From Sphingomonadaceae bacterium (GTDB lineage: Bacteria > Pseudomonadota > Alphaproteobacteria > Sphingomonadales > Sphingomonadaceae), in assembly GCA_947476735.1 (NCBI GenBank), contig CANJRZ010000001.1, positions 17,288-81,287 on the forward strand: a DNA stretch of 64,000 bases, written 5' to 3'. Under the pieces are notes generated by a model. That model searched no databases. It saw nothing but the letters and a program-made list of their open reading frames with translations, and was not told the DNA's origin. Of this stretch, positions 24,059-28,819 are shown piece by piece. Every line of letters starts with the position of its first letter. Position 1 is the stretch's first letter. Made by a program: the position numbers and the translations under genes.

Positions 24059-25097
24059 TCACCGTCGGATGCATCTCCAGTTCGCTGCCCCGCGTCGCCG
24101 ACATCGAGCTGATCCCGGCATAGTCCCAGACATTGGTGCGATATCGTCCGGTGTCCCCCAACCCGAAGCTGTTGGTGTGCTCGGCCGTCCCCTGCTTGAA
24201 GACGAAGATCAGCTCGTGTTTCGAGCGATAGAAGGACCCCATGCCCCCATTGGTCTTGTTCCACACCACCAGGTTCTGAGCTCGGTGAAGGCCGCCTTCC
24301 CTGCCGCGAGCAACTCGCCCATGTGGCGCCAGTCCATGCACACGAACGCGATCGCCCCGTCCCGCATCACCGACGACATCGCCGACAATGTCTCGGTCAG
24401 GAAACCGGTAAATTGGCTTTCGCTCACCTCACCGCTCGCGAAGGCGAACTCGCGGTGCTGGACCTTGCCATGTCCCGAGACATGACCATCGATTGGGACA
24501 TTATAGGGCGGATCGGTGAAGATCAGGTCGGCGCGCTCGTCGCCGAGGAGCGTGGCGTAGTCGCGCATCGCCACAGATTAGCTTGTGGCGCCCCAGAAGC
24601 CATAGATCGCCACGCCGCGAGACCGCATGGGCGGCCATGGCCGGTACCGCGTCTTCAGGCGCATCCGAACCATCAGGATCACTGTCGCCGGCTTCGTCGA
24701 GCGCGAAGTCGATCTCGGCGAGACTGAAGCCGGTGACCGACATATCGAAACCCAGGTCGATCAGGCCCTGGAGTTCGATCGCGAGGATCTCGCGGTCCCA
24801 GCCAGCATTCAGCGCGAGCTTGTTGTCGGCGAGGACATAGGCCCGTCGTTCGGTCTCGGACAAATGCGAGAGCGCGATCGTCGGCACCGACTTCATGCCG
24901 AGCAGGCGAGCCGCCTCGACCCGACCATGGCCGGCAATGATTTCGCCTTCGTCCGACACCAGCACCGGGTTCGTGAAGCCGAAGCGTTCGATGCTGTCGG
25001 CGATTTGTCGGATCTGTTTCTTGGAGTGTGTGCGCGCATTGCGCGCGTACGGTTTCAGCGAAGAAACGCTACGATCGAGCACTTGATACAAATGCAT
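24059..25097 (-). pseudogene. ParB/Srx-domain plus amino-DNA methyltransferase fusion, with two frameshifts and a truncated 3' end
   Basis: Three consecutive frames: ParB domain (IIAGHGRVEAA) to LICGDAR; shift near 24563 to FTDPPYN..AFTEL; shift near 24277 to NLVVWNK..MHPTV. Homology then stops before the expected FxGSG SAM-binding motif. Confidence 0.88.
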
Positions 25098-25263
25098 GGG
25101 GACCCCCCATAACAATGGTTTCCCTCCACTGACGATCTTAGCAAAAAGGCGCGCTCAGCGCAAGAACAGGCCGGGAACGAACCTGTGCAAAACCTTCCGG
25201 TTGGGGGCCGGGCAACGCCGCGATGGTGAGGCGCTGTACCGAGGCTGAGCGTCCGTCGGATCG

Positions 25264-25516
25264 CTGATACAGCAATCCGAAGTCCCTGATACGGACCTGA
25301 TACATCCCTGTTCGGTGGATCTAATTTCCCTGTTATCTGCGCAGGGAATTTCGCTGATAAAATGGCTGAAATCTGGGGATAATTGGGGATCTAAGGCGGT
25401 GGCAGATGGCCACAAAATGGAATTTTCCCTGTTAATTCCCTAAAAACAGGGAATTACAGGGTGAGACCCGTTCGCTCCGGACTGCCCCCCGCACCACCCA
25501 GTCCCTGATTCAGGGG
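25264..25516. repeat. Array of about 10 CCCTG(A/T)T / A(A/T)CAGGG motifs in direct and inverted orientation
   Basis: ccctgatac 25284, cctgatac 25296, ccctgttc 25306, ccctgtta 25328, cagggaatt 25342, ccctgtta 25427, aacaggg 25445, tacaggg 25455, palindrome ccctgattcaggg 25503-25515. Confidence 0.75.
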
Positions 25517-25739
25517 CTTTCAGAGACACTTGGGTAGCTCTCCCCGAAAGTCCCGCGCTTCCGCGGGATTCTCCGGCCCGACCTCGAAATGTGTGGCCAG
25601 AGACCGCTCCGTCTCGGGCCATTTCTCCGCTTTTTGAGCCTAAGTCTCAAATGCCGAAATCAGTGGCCACAGATTTGAAATGCCCGAAAAGATGAGGCAC
25701 GCCGATGGCGCGCCTCGTAGTTCTCGATGGTAATGCTGG

Positions 25740-27410
25740 TCAGGCGAAGCCGAGCTGGCGTCGCTGCTGATCCCACTCGACGGGCAGGTCAGCCATCCGC
25801 AGCAAGGAGCGAGTGGTAAGTTCGACCGGCTGGCGACCTTCAAGGATCGCTGTGACAATGTCTGGGGCCAGGAAGTTGAGGCGCGCAAGCCGGACCGTCT
25901 GTCGCCTCGTCTCCCCGACAGCTTTCCCGGTGAGCAGTTCCTGATAGGCCGACCGGCCCTGCGCCAGGATCTGGATCAATCGATCGTCGCGAGCGGCCGG
26001 TCGCGCTTCGGGCGCTGCATAGACGAGCTTCAGCTCATGCCCCCGCCGTCGCAGCTGCACCTCGATATTGATCGCTATCGGCTCCTCCGAGGCTGCCGCA
26101 CCATCACAGGCGATCAGGCCGAGCAGCTTCGAAGGCTCGATGAGGATGGAAATAACCTCCTGGCGTAGGATGATCCGTGCGCTAAGGTCACGGAGGAGCT
26201 TGCTCAATGATGCGGGATCATTGGCAAGCTCCGACAGCTGGCCAGCGGCACTTTCGAAGGCCACATTTGCCTTCAGCGCGTCACCCAGTTCCGCCGACAC
26301 ACGCAGCGGATCATTCAAGAAGCTCTTGAGACTTTTCTCGATCATCCCCTCCAGGTCCGGCGCAGGGATGCGCCAAGGCGCTTCGGCGTGGTCTGCGTCG
26401 TCGCGCGAGACATAATAGCGGTAGCGGCGATTGCCGCGGTTGCCATGAGCCGGTGCCATCATGCGGCCCAGGCCATCTTCGAGAAAACCGTTGAGCGGGC
26501 TCGGCAGGCTTTTCCTTGGGCGCGGAGCGTTGGTGGCCTTGCTGAAGAGCAGCTGGTTCGCGTCCCAGAGTTCCTGGGAGATGATCGCTTCATGCTCCCC
26601 CTGATATATCTGGTCGCCGTGGCGGATGAGACCGATGAAGATGACGTTGCGCAGCAAGTAGGCGAGGGCACCGTAGTTGTAGGGCGTGCCGCCTACGACC
26701 CGCCCATCCTGCATCATCCTGACCTTCGACCGGATACCCTTGACGGCAAGATCCTCGACCAGCTCAGGGATGGATCCAAGCTCGACATGGCGCTCGAATA
26801 TGTATCGGACGGTTGCCGCTTCTGTCTCATTGATCAGGAGCTTCCGCTCATGAAGGTCGTAGCCCACCGGGACGGGACCTCCCATCCACATGCCCTTCTT
26901 CTTCGAGGCGGCGATCTTGTCGCGGATGCGCTCGCCGGTCACCTCGCGCTCGAACTGGGCGAAGGACAGCAGCACGTTGAGCGTCAACCTTCCCATGCTG
27001 GTCGTTGTGTTGAAGGCTTGGGTGACCGAGACGAAGCTCACGCCATGTCTGTCGAGGATCTCGACGATGCGAGCAAAGTCCGACAGGGCGCGGGTCAGCC
27101 GGTCGACCTTGTATATGACGATCACTTGGATACGACCGCTCTCGACATCCGCAAGCAGCCGCTTGAGGGCAGGGCGCTCCATCGTCCCGCCGGAATAGCC
27201 ACCATCATCGTAGAAGGTCGGGTCCATCTCCCAGCCCTCGTGGCGCTGGCTGGCGATATAGGCAGCGCATGCCTCTCGCTGGGCGTCCAGACTGTTGAAC
27301 GCCTGATCAAGGCCCTCGTCGGTCGACTTACGGGTATAGACGGCGCACCGCACTTTACGGGCGCCTGTGGGGCTCGCATTGGCGAGCGTCCTGGGTCCAC
27401 GCTTAGCCAT
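25740..27410 (-). CDS. Large serine recombinase
   Basis: Catalytic AVYTRKS, DDGGYSGGTMERPAL, VYKVDRLTR, FAQFERE, followed by a recombinase domain; 556 aa, uninterrupted. Confidence 0.95.
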   Translation of the reverse strand: MAKRGPRTLANASPTGARKVRCAVYTRKSTDEGLDQAFNSLDAQREACAAYIASQRHEGWEMDPTFYDDGGYSGGTMERPALKRLLADVESGRIQVIVIYKVDRLTRALSDFARIVEILDRHGVSFVSVTQAFNTTTSMGRLTLNVLLSFAQFEREVTGERIRDKIAASKKKGMWMGGPVPVGYDLHERKLLINETEAATVRYIFERHVELGSIPELVEDLAVKGIRSKVRMMQDGRVVGGTPYNYGALAYLLRNVIFIGLIRHGDQIYQGEHEAIISQELWDANQLLFSKATNAPRPRKSLPSPLNGFLEDGLGRMMAPAHGNRGNRRYRYYVSRDDADHAEAPWRIPAPDLEGMIEKSLKSFLNDPLRVSAELGDALKANVAFESAAGQLSELANDPASLSKLLRDLSARIILRQEVISILIEPSKLLGLIACDGAAASEEPIAINIEVQLRRRGHELKLVYAAPEARPAARDDRLIQILAQGRSAYQELLTGKAVGETRRQTVRLARLNFLAPDIVTAILEGRQPVELTTRSLLRMADLPVEWDQQRRQLGFA

Positions 27411-27852
27411 GGGCCTGTCCTCCTCGCGAGGGTGGGCTCGGCCTTCGCTTCAATCCGAAGAAGCGCGGGCCTGACCAATGCGATCCGGTGATCTCGCGGG
27501 CGATGTGCGACAAGGACGCGAAGCGGCGACCGTCAAAGCTGAAGCCGTCGTCATCGACCATGACAGTGTGAATCTTGCCATTCCATTCGCGCAGCAGCCG
27601 CGAGCCCGGCTTCAGGCGAATAGGAGCATCGGGCAGGGGCGTCACACCATCCGCGATGATGTCGAGCATCCGAAGCGCCGACGCTGGCAAGCCGCCAAGC
27701 ACTACTTCTTGCAGCCTATAAGCGATGACCCGGCGTAGCATCGAAGCTGGGAAATCGGGTGCGCCCTCTCCGAAGCTGCTCTGCCACTCCTCGCGCAGCT
27801 GGGGTGGCGACATCGTCGCCAGCCCAGCCAGTTTCTCATCGAGCTTGCCCAT
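27403..27852 (-). CDS. DUF2924-like protein
   Basis: LKPGSRLLREWNG, SLSHIAREITGSHWSGPRFFGL; overlaps the recombinase start. Confidence 0.88.
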   Translation of the reverse strand: MGKLDEKLAGLATMSPPQLREEWQSSFGEGAPDFPASMLRRVIAYRLQEVVLGGLPASALRMLDIIADGVTPLPDAPIRLKPGSRLLREWNGKIHTVMVDDDGFSFDGRRFASLSHIAREITGSHWSGPRFFGLKRRPSPPSRGGQAHG

Positions 27853-27854
27853 GA

Positions 27855-28382
27855 TCAGGCGGTGACCGCGATCTGGTAGCGGGTGATCCCGTCCACCTTG
27901 GACTTCTCGATGTTGTGGCCCTTCTTGCGGAGGCCCGTCAGTGCCGCACGCGAGGTGTGCGGCAACCAGCCGGTCGCGTTCACGACATCTTCCAGGGTCG
28001 CACCGCCGTCGCGCTTGAGGAGGTCGATCAGCATCGACTGTTTGGTGGCCGGTCCCGGGGCAGGCGGCGCGGCTTGCCCATCCGCTTCCTTCCCCGTCCT
28101 ATCCTCCGCCCCGGCGTTGGGGCCGGCGGGCGGGTTGATGATCGCGCGGCCGGCATCGGTGACGACGACGCCGATGGTGAGGTCGCCATCGGTCCGCCAG
28201 ACCTGCGCGGCGGTCATTCCCTCCTGCTCGGTAGCGAGGCCCTTCTTGATCAGGGCTTCGACCGCTTTTCGGATGCGGTCAGCCTGATCGCCGAGGCTCT
28301 CGGGCGGGGGTAGCAAGCTACCGTCTTCGCGCTGGCAGGCGGTGGTGAGCAGTACGAGCTGCATGTCGGTCAGCTTGGTCAT
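27855..28382 (-). CDS. DUF3489-like winged-helix protein
   Basis: MTKLTDMQLVLL N-terminus; C-terminal TKQSMLIDLL..GATLEDVVNATGWLPHTSRAALTGLRKKG; ATG 28382 with AAGGA SD. Confidence 0.85.
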   Translation of the reverse strand: MTKLTDMQLVLLTTACQREDGSLLPPPESLGDQADRIRKAVEALIKKGLATEQEGMTAAQVWRTDGDLTIGVVVTDAGRAIINPPAGPNAGAEDRTGKEADGQAAPPAPGPATKQSMLIDLLKRDGGATLEDVVNATGWLPHTSRAALTGLRKKGHNIEKSKVDGITRYQIAVTA

Positions 28383-28600
28383 ATGGGTGGTCCTTTTCTG
28401 GGCAAGGGCGCCATTGCCCCTCCCACCACCCACAGCCCCGCCGGTTGCCCGGTCGGGGTATGCGCCGGTTCGTTCCACCGGTGCGATTCACACGAGCACC
28501 AATGCTTGGTGTCGCAACCAAGTCGAGCAAATAGTGCAGGAAAATGCTCGGTCTGGACTGTTCTGGCGCTTCCCGCCTTGGTGTCGGTCGGAGGTGGCCC

Positions 28601-28819
28601 ATGGACCAGGAGGAACGCGCGGATCTTGTTGCCAGGCTATTCGCGCTGATGACGAGCAAGCTCGAGGACGCGGCTCACGAGGCCATGGAAGGGCAGCGCA
28701 AAGGCTTGGAGGAGAGCGATCAGATAGCGCGAGCCGAACGGATTGAAATGGCATCCCGCGACATCGGTCTGCTCGCAGAAGCGGTGGCGGCGATATTGCG
28801 CTCTCAACTCGCCGGCTGA
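28601..28819 (+). CDS. Hypothetical 72-aa, probably helical protein
   Basis: Strong SD GGAGGT before ATG 28601; amphipathic-helical composition; divergent from the DUF3489-like gene. Confidence 0.65.
   Translation: MDQEERADLVARLFALMTSKLEDAAHEAMEGQRKGLEESDQIARAERIEMASRDIGLLAEAVAAILRSQLAG

Follow-up and report, generated by a model that had tools for sequence, protein, structure and literature searches.

A probable attP-type junction of tandem tRNA-Thr islands in a Sphingomonadaceae genome, with phased TCCCTG boxes as candidate accessory sites for a large serine recombinase

The closest described counterparts of the locus analyzed here are the ssrA-specific genomic islands of Dehalococcoides, which carry the serine recombinases DsiB/DsiA (McMurdie et al. 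2011, PMC3146451), and the temperate phage AcaML1 of Acidithiobacillus caldus, whose insertion at the CCA end of ssrA involves a 10-bp direct repeat (PMC3826726). The Islander work of 2014 reported no known case of a serine integrase targeting tRNA genes, and rare large serine recombinases have been reported in the Prochlorococcus elements studied at tRNA genes and in Mesorhizobium integrative and mobilizable elements and one integrative and conjugative element. Our subject is a 64,000-nucleotide stretch of DNA from a Sphingomonadaceae bacterium (the window) and, within it, the interval 25116-25739 between a large serine recombinase gene and the next gene downstream. Altogether, our results support a model, which we regard as probable, whereby this interval is an attP-type junction, made up of a P arm, a core and a P' arm, between two tandem islands at a tRNA-Thr(GGT) gene, and whereby the TCCCTG boxes repeated in it act as accessory sites. 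The model builds on four observations: a mosaic breakpoint within the interval, the targeting of tRNA genes by the recombinase family, the structure of empty and occupied sites, and the positional conservation of every motif.

The likeness to the Dehalococcoides islands is extensive. In both cases, a large serine recombinase inserts at the 3' part of a tRNA-like gene, islands form tandem arrays bounded by short direct repeats, the integration module lies beside attL and is read towards it, and genes with ParB domains and for DNA methylation are part of the module; a conserved 15-bp motif beside each Dehalococcoides repeat is comparable as well. The Dehalococcoides enzymes, however, belong to a CcrB-like clade and are accompanied by a second small recombinase in place of the DUF2924 and DUF3489 proteins found here, their target lies inside the tmRNA T-loop and yields a 20-bp repeat, and no phased multi-box arm has been described for them. 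AcaML1 has a homologous recombinase (50% identity over residues 7-373), preceded at the position of DUF2924 by the 148-aa protein Gp4, a likeness judged by position. It differs in being a 59-kb phage with a recombinase split over two genes, and its ends carry an IS5 but neither TCCCTG boxes nor the P-box pattern described below. We found no description of a phased multi-box arm in the literature, and no report on the function of DUF2924 or DUF3489 in the sparse literature that mentions these families.

Among better studied systems, the canonical large serine integrases of phiC31, Bxb1, TP901-1 and A118 share with the present system the resolvase and recombinase domains and hybrid attL and attR sites without long duplication, and the core of about 55 bp may here, as there, be an imperfect dyad; but their att sites measure 40-50 bp, function without accessory DNA and are seldom located at tRNA genes, whereas about 400 bp (-215 to +180) are conserved here. 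We know of no accessory DNA sites for large serine recombinases. Like attP of phage lambda, the present site is large, and phased direct and inverted boxes that are distinct from the core flank the crossover. Lambda attP combines arm-type sites for Int with the X1, X1.5 and X2 sites for Xis and with IHF sites, and the small winged-helix Xis protein binds head-to-tail boxes and bends the arm; lambda Int itself differs in being a tyrosine recombinase with a dedicated arm-binding domain. At the res sites of Tn3 and gamma-delta, accessory sites for dimers of a serine recombinase adjoin the crossover site, and a dyad in the P' arm (GAGAC-N39-GTCTC) reuses the pentamer of the core half-site, in the same way as res sites II and III reuse the motif of site I. 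Nevertheless, res covers only about 120 bp, with a single motif shared by three sites, and serves a small resolvase in an intramolecular reaction, whereas here the enzyme has 556 aa, the TCCCTG boxes are unlike the core motifs GAGAC and GACTG, and the site spans about 400 bp and is used for integration and excision at a tRNA gene. Of the res-like, origin-like and attP-like characters that an earlier note on this DNA had considered, the last fits best, the first holds by analogy only and the second is unsupported.

The interval extends from the stop codon of the recombinase gene (25740, minus strand) to the start of the next minus-strand gene (25115). Nine CCCTG/CAGGG cores fall within 235 nt of it (25283-25517), at 25284, 25306, 25328, 25342 (inverted), 25427, 25447 (inverted), 25457 (inverted), 25503 and 25511 (inverted), compared with a mean of 0.58 per 235-nt window, which makes this the densest of 12,753 sliding windows over the 64 kb. 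The extended motif CCCTGWT occurs in exact form six times in the interval and 21 times in the other 63 kb. The earlier note had described a helically phased array of roughly ten copies of CCCTG(A/T)T in a region without a credible gene. The phasing is even cleaner than it claimed, because the TCCCTG hexamers start at 25283, 25305, 25327 and 25426, with spacings of 22, 22 and 99 nt that are all multiples of 11; the copy number is right for the 5-nt core but not for the full motif, since the copy at 25296 is degenerate (ACCTGAT). The other motifs that it named are also present, with coordinates that are exact or off by at most 1 nt: GAGAC at 25463, 25523 and 25600, GTCTC at 25611 and 25644, the TGGCCACA pair at 25407 and 25664, and the dyad GGACTG-N14-CAGTCC at 25479-25504. 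The interval also has several inverted repeats, including hairpins at 25427-25453 and 25500-25518. The open reading frames of the interval encode 42-86 aa without a Pfam match, in agreement with the absence of a credible gene, and a BLAST search of a plasmid collection with the 624 bp gave no match.

The breakpoint emerged from a search of the source assembly, a metagenome-assembled genome in 496 contigs. Positions 25491-28698 of the window, which include the right third of the interval and a complete trio of genes for DUF3489, DUF2924 and the recombinase, are 90% identical to C1:7503-10710 on the same contig and the same strand. This copy B is immediately adjacent to the CCA end of a tRNA-Thr(GGT) gene that lies 35 kb upstream. 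On contig C14, a third copy has a module that is 72% identical, and left of 25500 it shares with the window only 106 nt, at 100% identity (C14:30137-30242 versus 25395-25500), at which point the contig ends. Homology thus breaks at 25491 relative to copy B and at 25500 relative to copy C, and because GCACCACCCA is all that the three copies have in common at this point, a recombination junction lies within the interval at about 25491-25500, 243 nt beyond the recombinase stop; the crossover itself probably occurs within 25491-25497. The order in the genome, in a single orientation, is tRNA-Thr, module B (C1:7503-10710), P arm and module A (25498-28698), that is, a tRNA gene followed by two elements with their own modules and an att-type junction between them, as in a tandem island array. 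Three intact trios are present in the genome in total, along with two fragments. As the 106 nt of P arm on C14 are joined to the P' arm of the third module, the assembly graph branches exactly at the att core; these 106 nt represent either a second copy of the arm or a recombinant subpopulation in the sample. These data overturn two statements of the earlier note, which had placed the region inside the element and not at its edge and had assigned the array to the element of the adjacent recombinase: the region is the exact edge, a P/P' junction, and the array lies across it, in the distal end of the upstream neighbor.

The same arrangement is seen from the side of the tRNA genes. We collected 80 loci with recombinases of 44-59% identity, mostly from Sphingomonadales and other Alphaproteobacteria. 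Downstream of the recombinase gene, 55 of the loci have a tRNA gene in convergent orientation (Thr, Ser, Phe, Met, Gln and others), whose 3' end is reached 165-404 nt (median 241) after the stop codon, and we therefore conclude that the family integrates at tRNA ends. Orthologous tRNA-Thr genes were compared in 20 genomes, all of the same genus. Empty sites in these genomes read GCAGCACCA/TTTTTTC, that is, GCACCA/TTTTTT with the slash at the junction, and occupied sites read GCACCA/CCCAGTC followed by a homologous recombinase gene; distal island ends of the family read P arm-GCGCACCA/TTTTT (P arm-GCACCA/TTTTT). The relatives thus provide hybrid attL and attR sites together with an empty attB, as in large serine recombinase att systems. 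From the empty and occupied sites and the arm ends, attB would be tRNA...GCACCA/TTTTT and attP would be arm...GCACCA/CCCAGTC, and the interval has the attP arrangement. The window itself contains no tRNA or tmRNA gene according to ARAGORN. We also considered the left flank as a remnant of such a gene and rejected it, as ARAGORN gave no match there and a "GTTCGC" box has no T-stem complementarity and is 3 nt off the real T-loop. As a separate observation, genomes G004, G013, G017, G015 and G001 contain copies of the last 39-52 nt of tRNA-Thr(GGT), and those of G004, G013 and G017 are on the strand of the gene and 1-80 kb away, which is the signature of a tyrosine-integrase island; the same tRNA would then serve two unrelated integration systems.

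The loci without a tRNA gene share the layout of the window, with short repeats, a GAGACNGGTTCGCN4GACTG box, 8-12 nt ending in CCA, and then the recombinase side. The relaxed pattern GAGACNNGTTCN6GACTG (the P box) has 46 matches in 20 genomes that hold homologs, versus one match for the reversed control. The right ends of IS6-family insertion sequences (C70:322-343 and C452:1685-1706, and loci L101 and L117 in genome G070), which read GAGACGAGTTCGCGTTAGACTGacagcacc and so mimic the P-arm box and core, also match the pattern and were excluded as false positives. In the genome of the window, the only true copies are the site in the interval and the one that closes C14. The distance between box and recombinase is 7-58 kb in seven genomes, where the box is oriented as the far end of an island, and the arms end in GCACCA in islands targeting Thr and CCGCCA in islands targeting Ser, followed by a T-rich flank like that of empty sites. 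The earlier note had made its reading depend on conservation of the array next to homologous recombinases; taken literally this does not hold, as 55 of 80 recombinase genes adjoin a tRNA gene, but the array is kept at the opposite end of the island, where we compared 38 independent arms. A full recombinase gene lies downstream of five of these 38 arms and a C-terminal remnant downstream of three more, indicating that tandem junctions recur.

The density of TCCCTG/CAGGGA hexamers over the 38 arms is 3.6 per 260 nt, where about 0.12 are expected, and the hexamers occupy fixed positions relative to the half-site, the forward boxes at about -40, -30, -140, -160, -180 and -200 and the inverted ones at about -17 and about -120. 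In particular, 28 forward boxes lie at -40 to -31 and 17 inverted boxes at -20 to -11; the distance of the box triad to the half-site is 8-12 nt. Box-to-box distances fall into groups of 11, 21-22 and 97-99 nt; the last of these is found in 19 of the 38 arms, and the spacer is conserved in length only. The boxes of the window, at -180, -158, -136, -121 (inverted), -37, -28 (degenerate) and -16 (inverted), fit every consensus position. In variant arms all boxes are altered together, as TTTCCCGTTT in L028, as GTCCCACTT (four times) in L041 and as TTCGCTG/CAGCGAA in the triad of L110, and this change in concert points to a binder encoded by the element, not to a host factor. The arrays are intact in arms without an adjacent ParB-methylase gene and in genomes without an element-type terminase.

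In the window, the P arm follows a leader or promoter region (25116-25282) between the methylase start and the array, which is not conserved across arms and has a weak terminator-like hairpin at 25150-25162 on the minus strand. The distal box cluster (25283-25348, plus strand) comprises the three TCCCTG boxes of 22-nt period at 25283, 25305 and 25327, the degenerate copy at 25296 and an inverted CAGGGAA at 25342. An AT-rich spacer (25349-25423, GC fraction down to 0.47) separates it, with 99 nt between the box starts at 25327 and 25426, from the proximal triad TTTCCCTGTTAATTCCCTAAAAACAGGGAA and the TACAGGG that follows (25424-25461, plus strand), in which two direct boxes are 9 nt apart, the second being degenerate, and one is inverted. 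The half-site box GAGACCCGTTCGCTCCGGACTG (25463-25484, plus strand) matches the family pattern. Next comes the att core CCCCCCGCACCA (25485-25504), which ends like the 3' end of tRNA-Thr (GCACCA) before the start of P', and which lies inside the dyad 25479-25504 and spans the breakpoints at 25491 and 25500.

On the other side of the core, the P' half-site of island A (25498-25527, plus strand) consists of a hairpin, AGTCCCTGA/TCAGGGGCT, followed by TTT, and of the GAGAC at 25523. Eight relatives have a GTCTC at about +20 that mirrors the GAGAC of the P box (-34), suggesting a core of roughly GAGAC-N12-GACTG-N14-CAGTC-N12-GTCTC; the mirror element is lacking in the window. Further into P' lies the accessory dyad (25587-25676), with TGGCCA-GAGAC at 25594-25604, GTCTC at 25644-25648, TGGCCA at 25664-25669 and an extra GTCTC at 25611. 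GAGAC is found at +100 to +109 from CCA in 40 of 55 tRNA-adjacent loci (+103 in the window), and GAGA and TCTC are aligned 44-45 nt apart in all 55 sequences. A strong intrinsic terminator of the recombinase operon (25694-25716, minus strand), with a ten-pair GC-rich stem and a T-run, follows the stop at 24 nt. We also note that an element-supplied hairpin with TTT lies right after the tRNA CCA, in different sequence, at 25500-25521 of the window, C1:7511-7532, C14:30138-30119 and in loci L134 and L135, while the native sequence downstream of the tRNA is only a run of T; at occupied sites, the hairpin probably takes over as terminator of the tRNA gene.

The three proteins of the trio are the only ones whose genes are always present. 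The recombinase of island A (25740-27410, minus strand, 556 aa) has the Pfam domains Resolvase (1.1e-37) and Recombinase (1.3e-10) and thus the two domains and the length of over 400 aa typical of large serine recombinases, and its sequence matches in the PDB are the integrases of TP901-1, SPbeta (SprA), phiC31 and A118. Pfam detected no Cys4 zinc ribbon, and the C-terminal 127 or 266 residues have no Pfam match. The DUF2924 protein (27403-27852, minus strand, 149 aa, Pfam 1.6e-41) has its gene immediately before that of the recombinase in 77 of 77 homolog loci; its AlphaFold 2 model (mean predicted local distance difference test, pLDDT, 83.6) has a helical N-terminal domain and a small beta-barrel, for which Foldseek gave no significant PDB match. 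The DUF3489 protein (27855-28478, minus strand, 207 aa by the longest open reading frame, assigned by Pfam) is modeled with a pLDDT of 88.7 as two winged-helix domains. Its Foldseek matches are each weak (E 4e-4 to 0.1) but mostly to winged-helix proteins, among them MarR, ArsR, MecI and PadR regulators, and it has a conserved putative recognition helix, ATGWQPHSxRAALTGLRKKG.

On the far side of the P arm, the last gene of island B is a frameshifted ParB_N/N6_N4 DNA methyltransferase pseudogene (24209-25115, minus strand; Pfam ParB_N at 24501-25115 and N6_N4_Mtase at 24209-24574 in another frame), transcribed away from the att junction. Such a ParB-methylase gene adjoins nine arms, the one in the window and eight others with an intact homologous gene, L149 among them. 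A second ParB-methylase gene in the same genome (C333:3460-5015) has 75% nucleotide identity to the pseudogene and is preceded by GTTCCCTGTTTT and AATCCCTGTAAT boxes 23 nt apart; the contig ends before the position of any half-site box. In compact relatives, six genes in one orientation lie between the P arm and the tRNA gene: the ParB_N/N6_N4 methylase, one or two DUF5681 genes, a large terminase gene (TerL, Terminase_6C), DUF3489, DUF2924 and the recombinase. L148 (G074:C4:1298300-1308000, 8.8 kb) has all six and an insertion sequence, L149 (G063:C1:348500-366800, about 17 kb) has cargo in place of TerL, and in larger islands the cargo is inserted between the two halves of the six-gene set. 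This organization suggests descent of the set from a satellite of a phage or gene transfer agent, or from a tiny prophage, and the minimal six-gene forms may themselves be such satellites.

In our model of the locus, two islands driven by paralogous DUF3489-DUF2924-recombinase modules would be stacked head to tail. Island B would run from the CCA end of the tRNA (C1:7510, some 10 kb to the left of the window) to 25497; its terminal 215 bp (25283-25497) would be the distal arm of the family with the boxes, the half-site GAGACCCGTTCGCTCCGGACTG and the 6-nt copy of the tRNA end, GCACCA. Island A would start at 25498 with the P' half-site, which is followed by the GAGAC...GTCTC dyad at +103/+147, by the terminator and by the recombinase gene. 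Pairs of recombinase dimers would bind the core dyad and exchange strands within GCACCA, and the TCCCTG boxes would be accessory sites for a protein of the element. Judging from the structure models, the boxes of attP would be bound by a protein of the trio, most likely DUF3489, the alternatives being DUF2924 or the uncharacterized C-terminal region of the recombinase. The binder could wrap the P arm on one helical face and, together with the P' dyad, control synapsis or the direction of recombination, in a manner resembling the arms of lambda attP or the accessory sites of res, but for a large serine recombinase. The earlier note had proposed a binding platform for the recombinase and its two small partners; conservation of the site and its link to the module agree with this, while protein binding is a prediction. 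On sequence grounds, boxes conserved from -215 to +180 argue against the sufficiency of a short att site, and they suggest that recombinases of this family work at a large attachment site with several proteins, not at a short one as is usual. More tentatively, and with less confidence than in the junction itself, we consider that the family may represent a widespread alphaproteobacterial clade with a lambda-like intasome, in which DUF3489, perhaps with DUF2924, would coat the phased boxes of an attP of about 400 bp, a second recombinase-type dyad would lie 100 bp into P', and the assembly would set directionality and restrict integration to the 3' ends of tRNA genes.

Several points weigh against an attP-type junction with protein-bound boxes. 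DUF3489 was detected in just 61 of the 77 loci, no TCCCTG is enriched upstream of the trio and DUF3489 thus has no autoregulatory footprint there, and canonical large serine recombinases, to our knowledge, require no accessory DNA. The conserved spacing could in part come from shared descent. Neither the distal arm of island A nor the chromosomal flank (B') was found in the fragmented assembly, so that the tandem model at this locus rests on family analogy: no further P box or TCCCTG cluster was found in the 496 contigs to mark a terminal attR and its chromosomal flank, relaxed searches of the genome for the ends of islands A and C (P box, TCCCTG cluster, GACTG-N-CACCA) returned the known site only, and the flank of the empty tRNA-Thr site could not be mapped onto the assembly by blastn or tblastn, the flanks being variable islands in relatives. 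Finally, the minimal six-gene relatives have the arm upstream of their entire operon as well, and there promoter or operator and att roles are inseparable.

The last point leads to the most serious of the alternatives, which we nevertheless think unlikely, namely that the boxes are chiefly a transcriptional operator or promoter through which a winged-helix repressor or activator switches the ParB-methylase or the six-gene operon; such a role could coexist with that in attachment. The likeness of DUF3489 to MarR/ArsR-type regulators fits an operator, as do the ParB-methylase genes beside nine arms, the window's included, the placement of the distal cluster 170-235 nt upstream of the methylase start, the six co-oriented genes of L148 that begin just past the arm, apart from the inserted insertion sequence, and the co-orientation of the arm-adjacent ParB-methylase and DUF5681 genes of L149 with the trio. 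But arrays are equally intact beside an unrelated gene or an insertion sequence, the methylase of the window is a pseudogene and all boxes are still in place, no sigma-70-like promoter was found on the minus strand, and an operator has no need of a triad held 8-12 nt from a recombinase half-site. We attach much less weight to a packaging (pac) site at which DUF5681, as a small terminase-like protein, and TerL would load the excised element into capsids of a helper phage or gene transfer agent. Terminase recognition sites typically have phased repeats, for instance the R sites of lambda cosB and the hexamers of P1 pac, and the minimal relatives do encode TerL and one or two DUF5681 proteins beside the arm; on the other hand, TerL is beside the trio in only seven of 59 loci, and nine of the 20 genomes searched have no such TerL although six of these nine have P-box matches. 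One TerL-less genome even holds 13 P-box copies, of which the nine read carry TCCCTG boxes, and the genome of the window has no match to TerL or DUF5681 while its array is intact, so that cognate small and large terminase genes do not accompany the array as they would a pac or cos site.

Two further readings have very little in their favor. The 22-bp period of the direct repeats, the AT-rich spacer, two DnaA-box-like 9-mers at 25374-25392 and the adjoining ParB_N gene could be features of an iteron-type replication origin or a partition site of the excised circle, which we judge highly improbable: the array is locked to the att half-site, the annotated elements L148 and L149 show no gene for Rep, ParA or a true ParB, the ParB_N domain of the window is fused to a methylase, and the combination of rep gene, DnaA boxes and AT-rich element that marks an iteron origin is thus not seen. 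The 9-mers themselves, TGGGGATAA and TGGGGATCT, are 10 nt apart in the arm spacer, and AATTGGGGATC recurs in an arm from the same genus (L008), but over the 38 arms such boxes have no fixed position and no significant enrichment (10 versus 4.3 +/- 2.2 in shuffles). Least probable of all is a structured RNA or small RNA of which the inverted repeats, including the hairpins at 25427-25453 and 25500-25518, would form the stems. Positions 25116-25739 match no Rfam family, and the sole match with E<=1 in a 6.5-kb scan is a weak RsmV at 26343-26374, within the recombinase gene. RNAalifold scored the 55 P' sequences at -0.02 and -2.07 kcal/mol, with the invariant GAGA/UCUC as the only pairs and no compensatory changes, and gave no consensus structure for them; moreover, the direct repeats vary in concert with the inverted ones, which fits sites for a protein and not stems.

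Reading the interval as an attP-type junction redraws the map of this window, in that the roughly 35 kb of catabolic genes left of 25497 become island cargo. If island B extends from tRNA-Thr to 25497, the genes for P450, SDR, aldehyde dehydrogenase, acyl-CoA dehydrogenase and kinase proteins (window 1-25115 and C1:10711-17287) are the cargo of an island of about 35 kb. Large serine integrases are prized for genome engineering because short att sites and directionality factors made of protein alone are taken to be enough for them, and they are the textbook non-users of tRNA genes. The present family, which spans Sphingomonadales, Hyphomicrobiales, Rhodospirillales and related groups, builds tandem arrays of islands whose cargo is catabolic or of other kinds, and it has kept a multi-box arm with rigid spacing as well as a second dyad. 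If the boxes are functional, they would add a new control logic to serine recombination, through DNA-bound accessory factors, would give functions to two DUF families, and would make the half-site box with its TCCCTG triad a precise signature of island ends in alphaproteobacterial genomes. Should a lambda-like intasome be true, it would be the first system of DNA-bound accessory sites for a large serine integrase.

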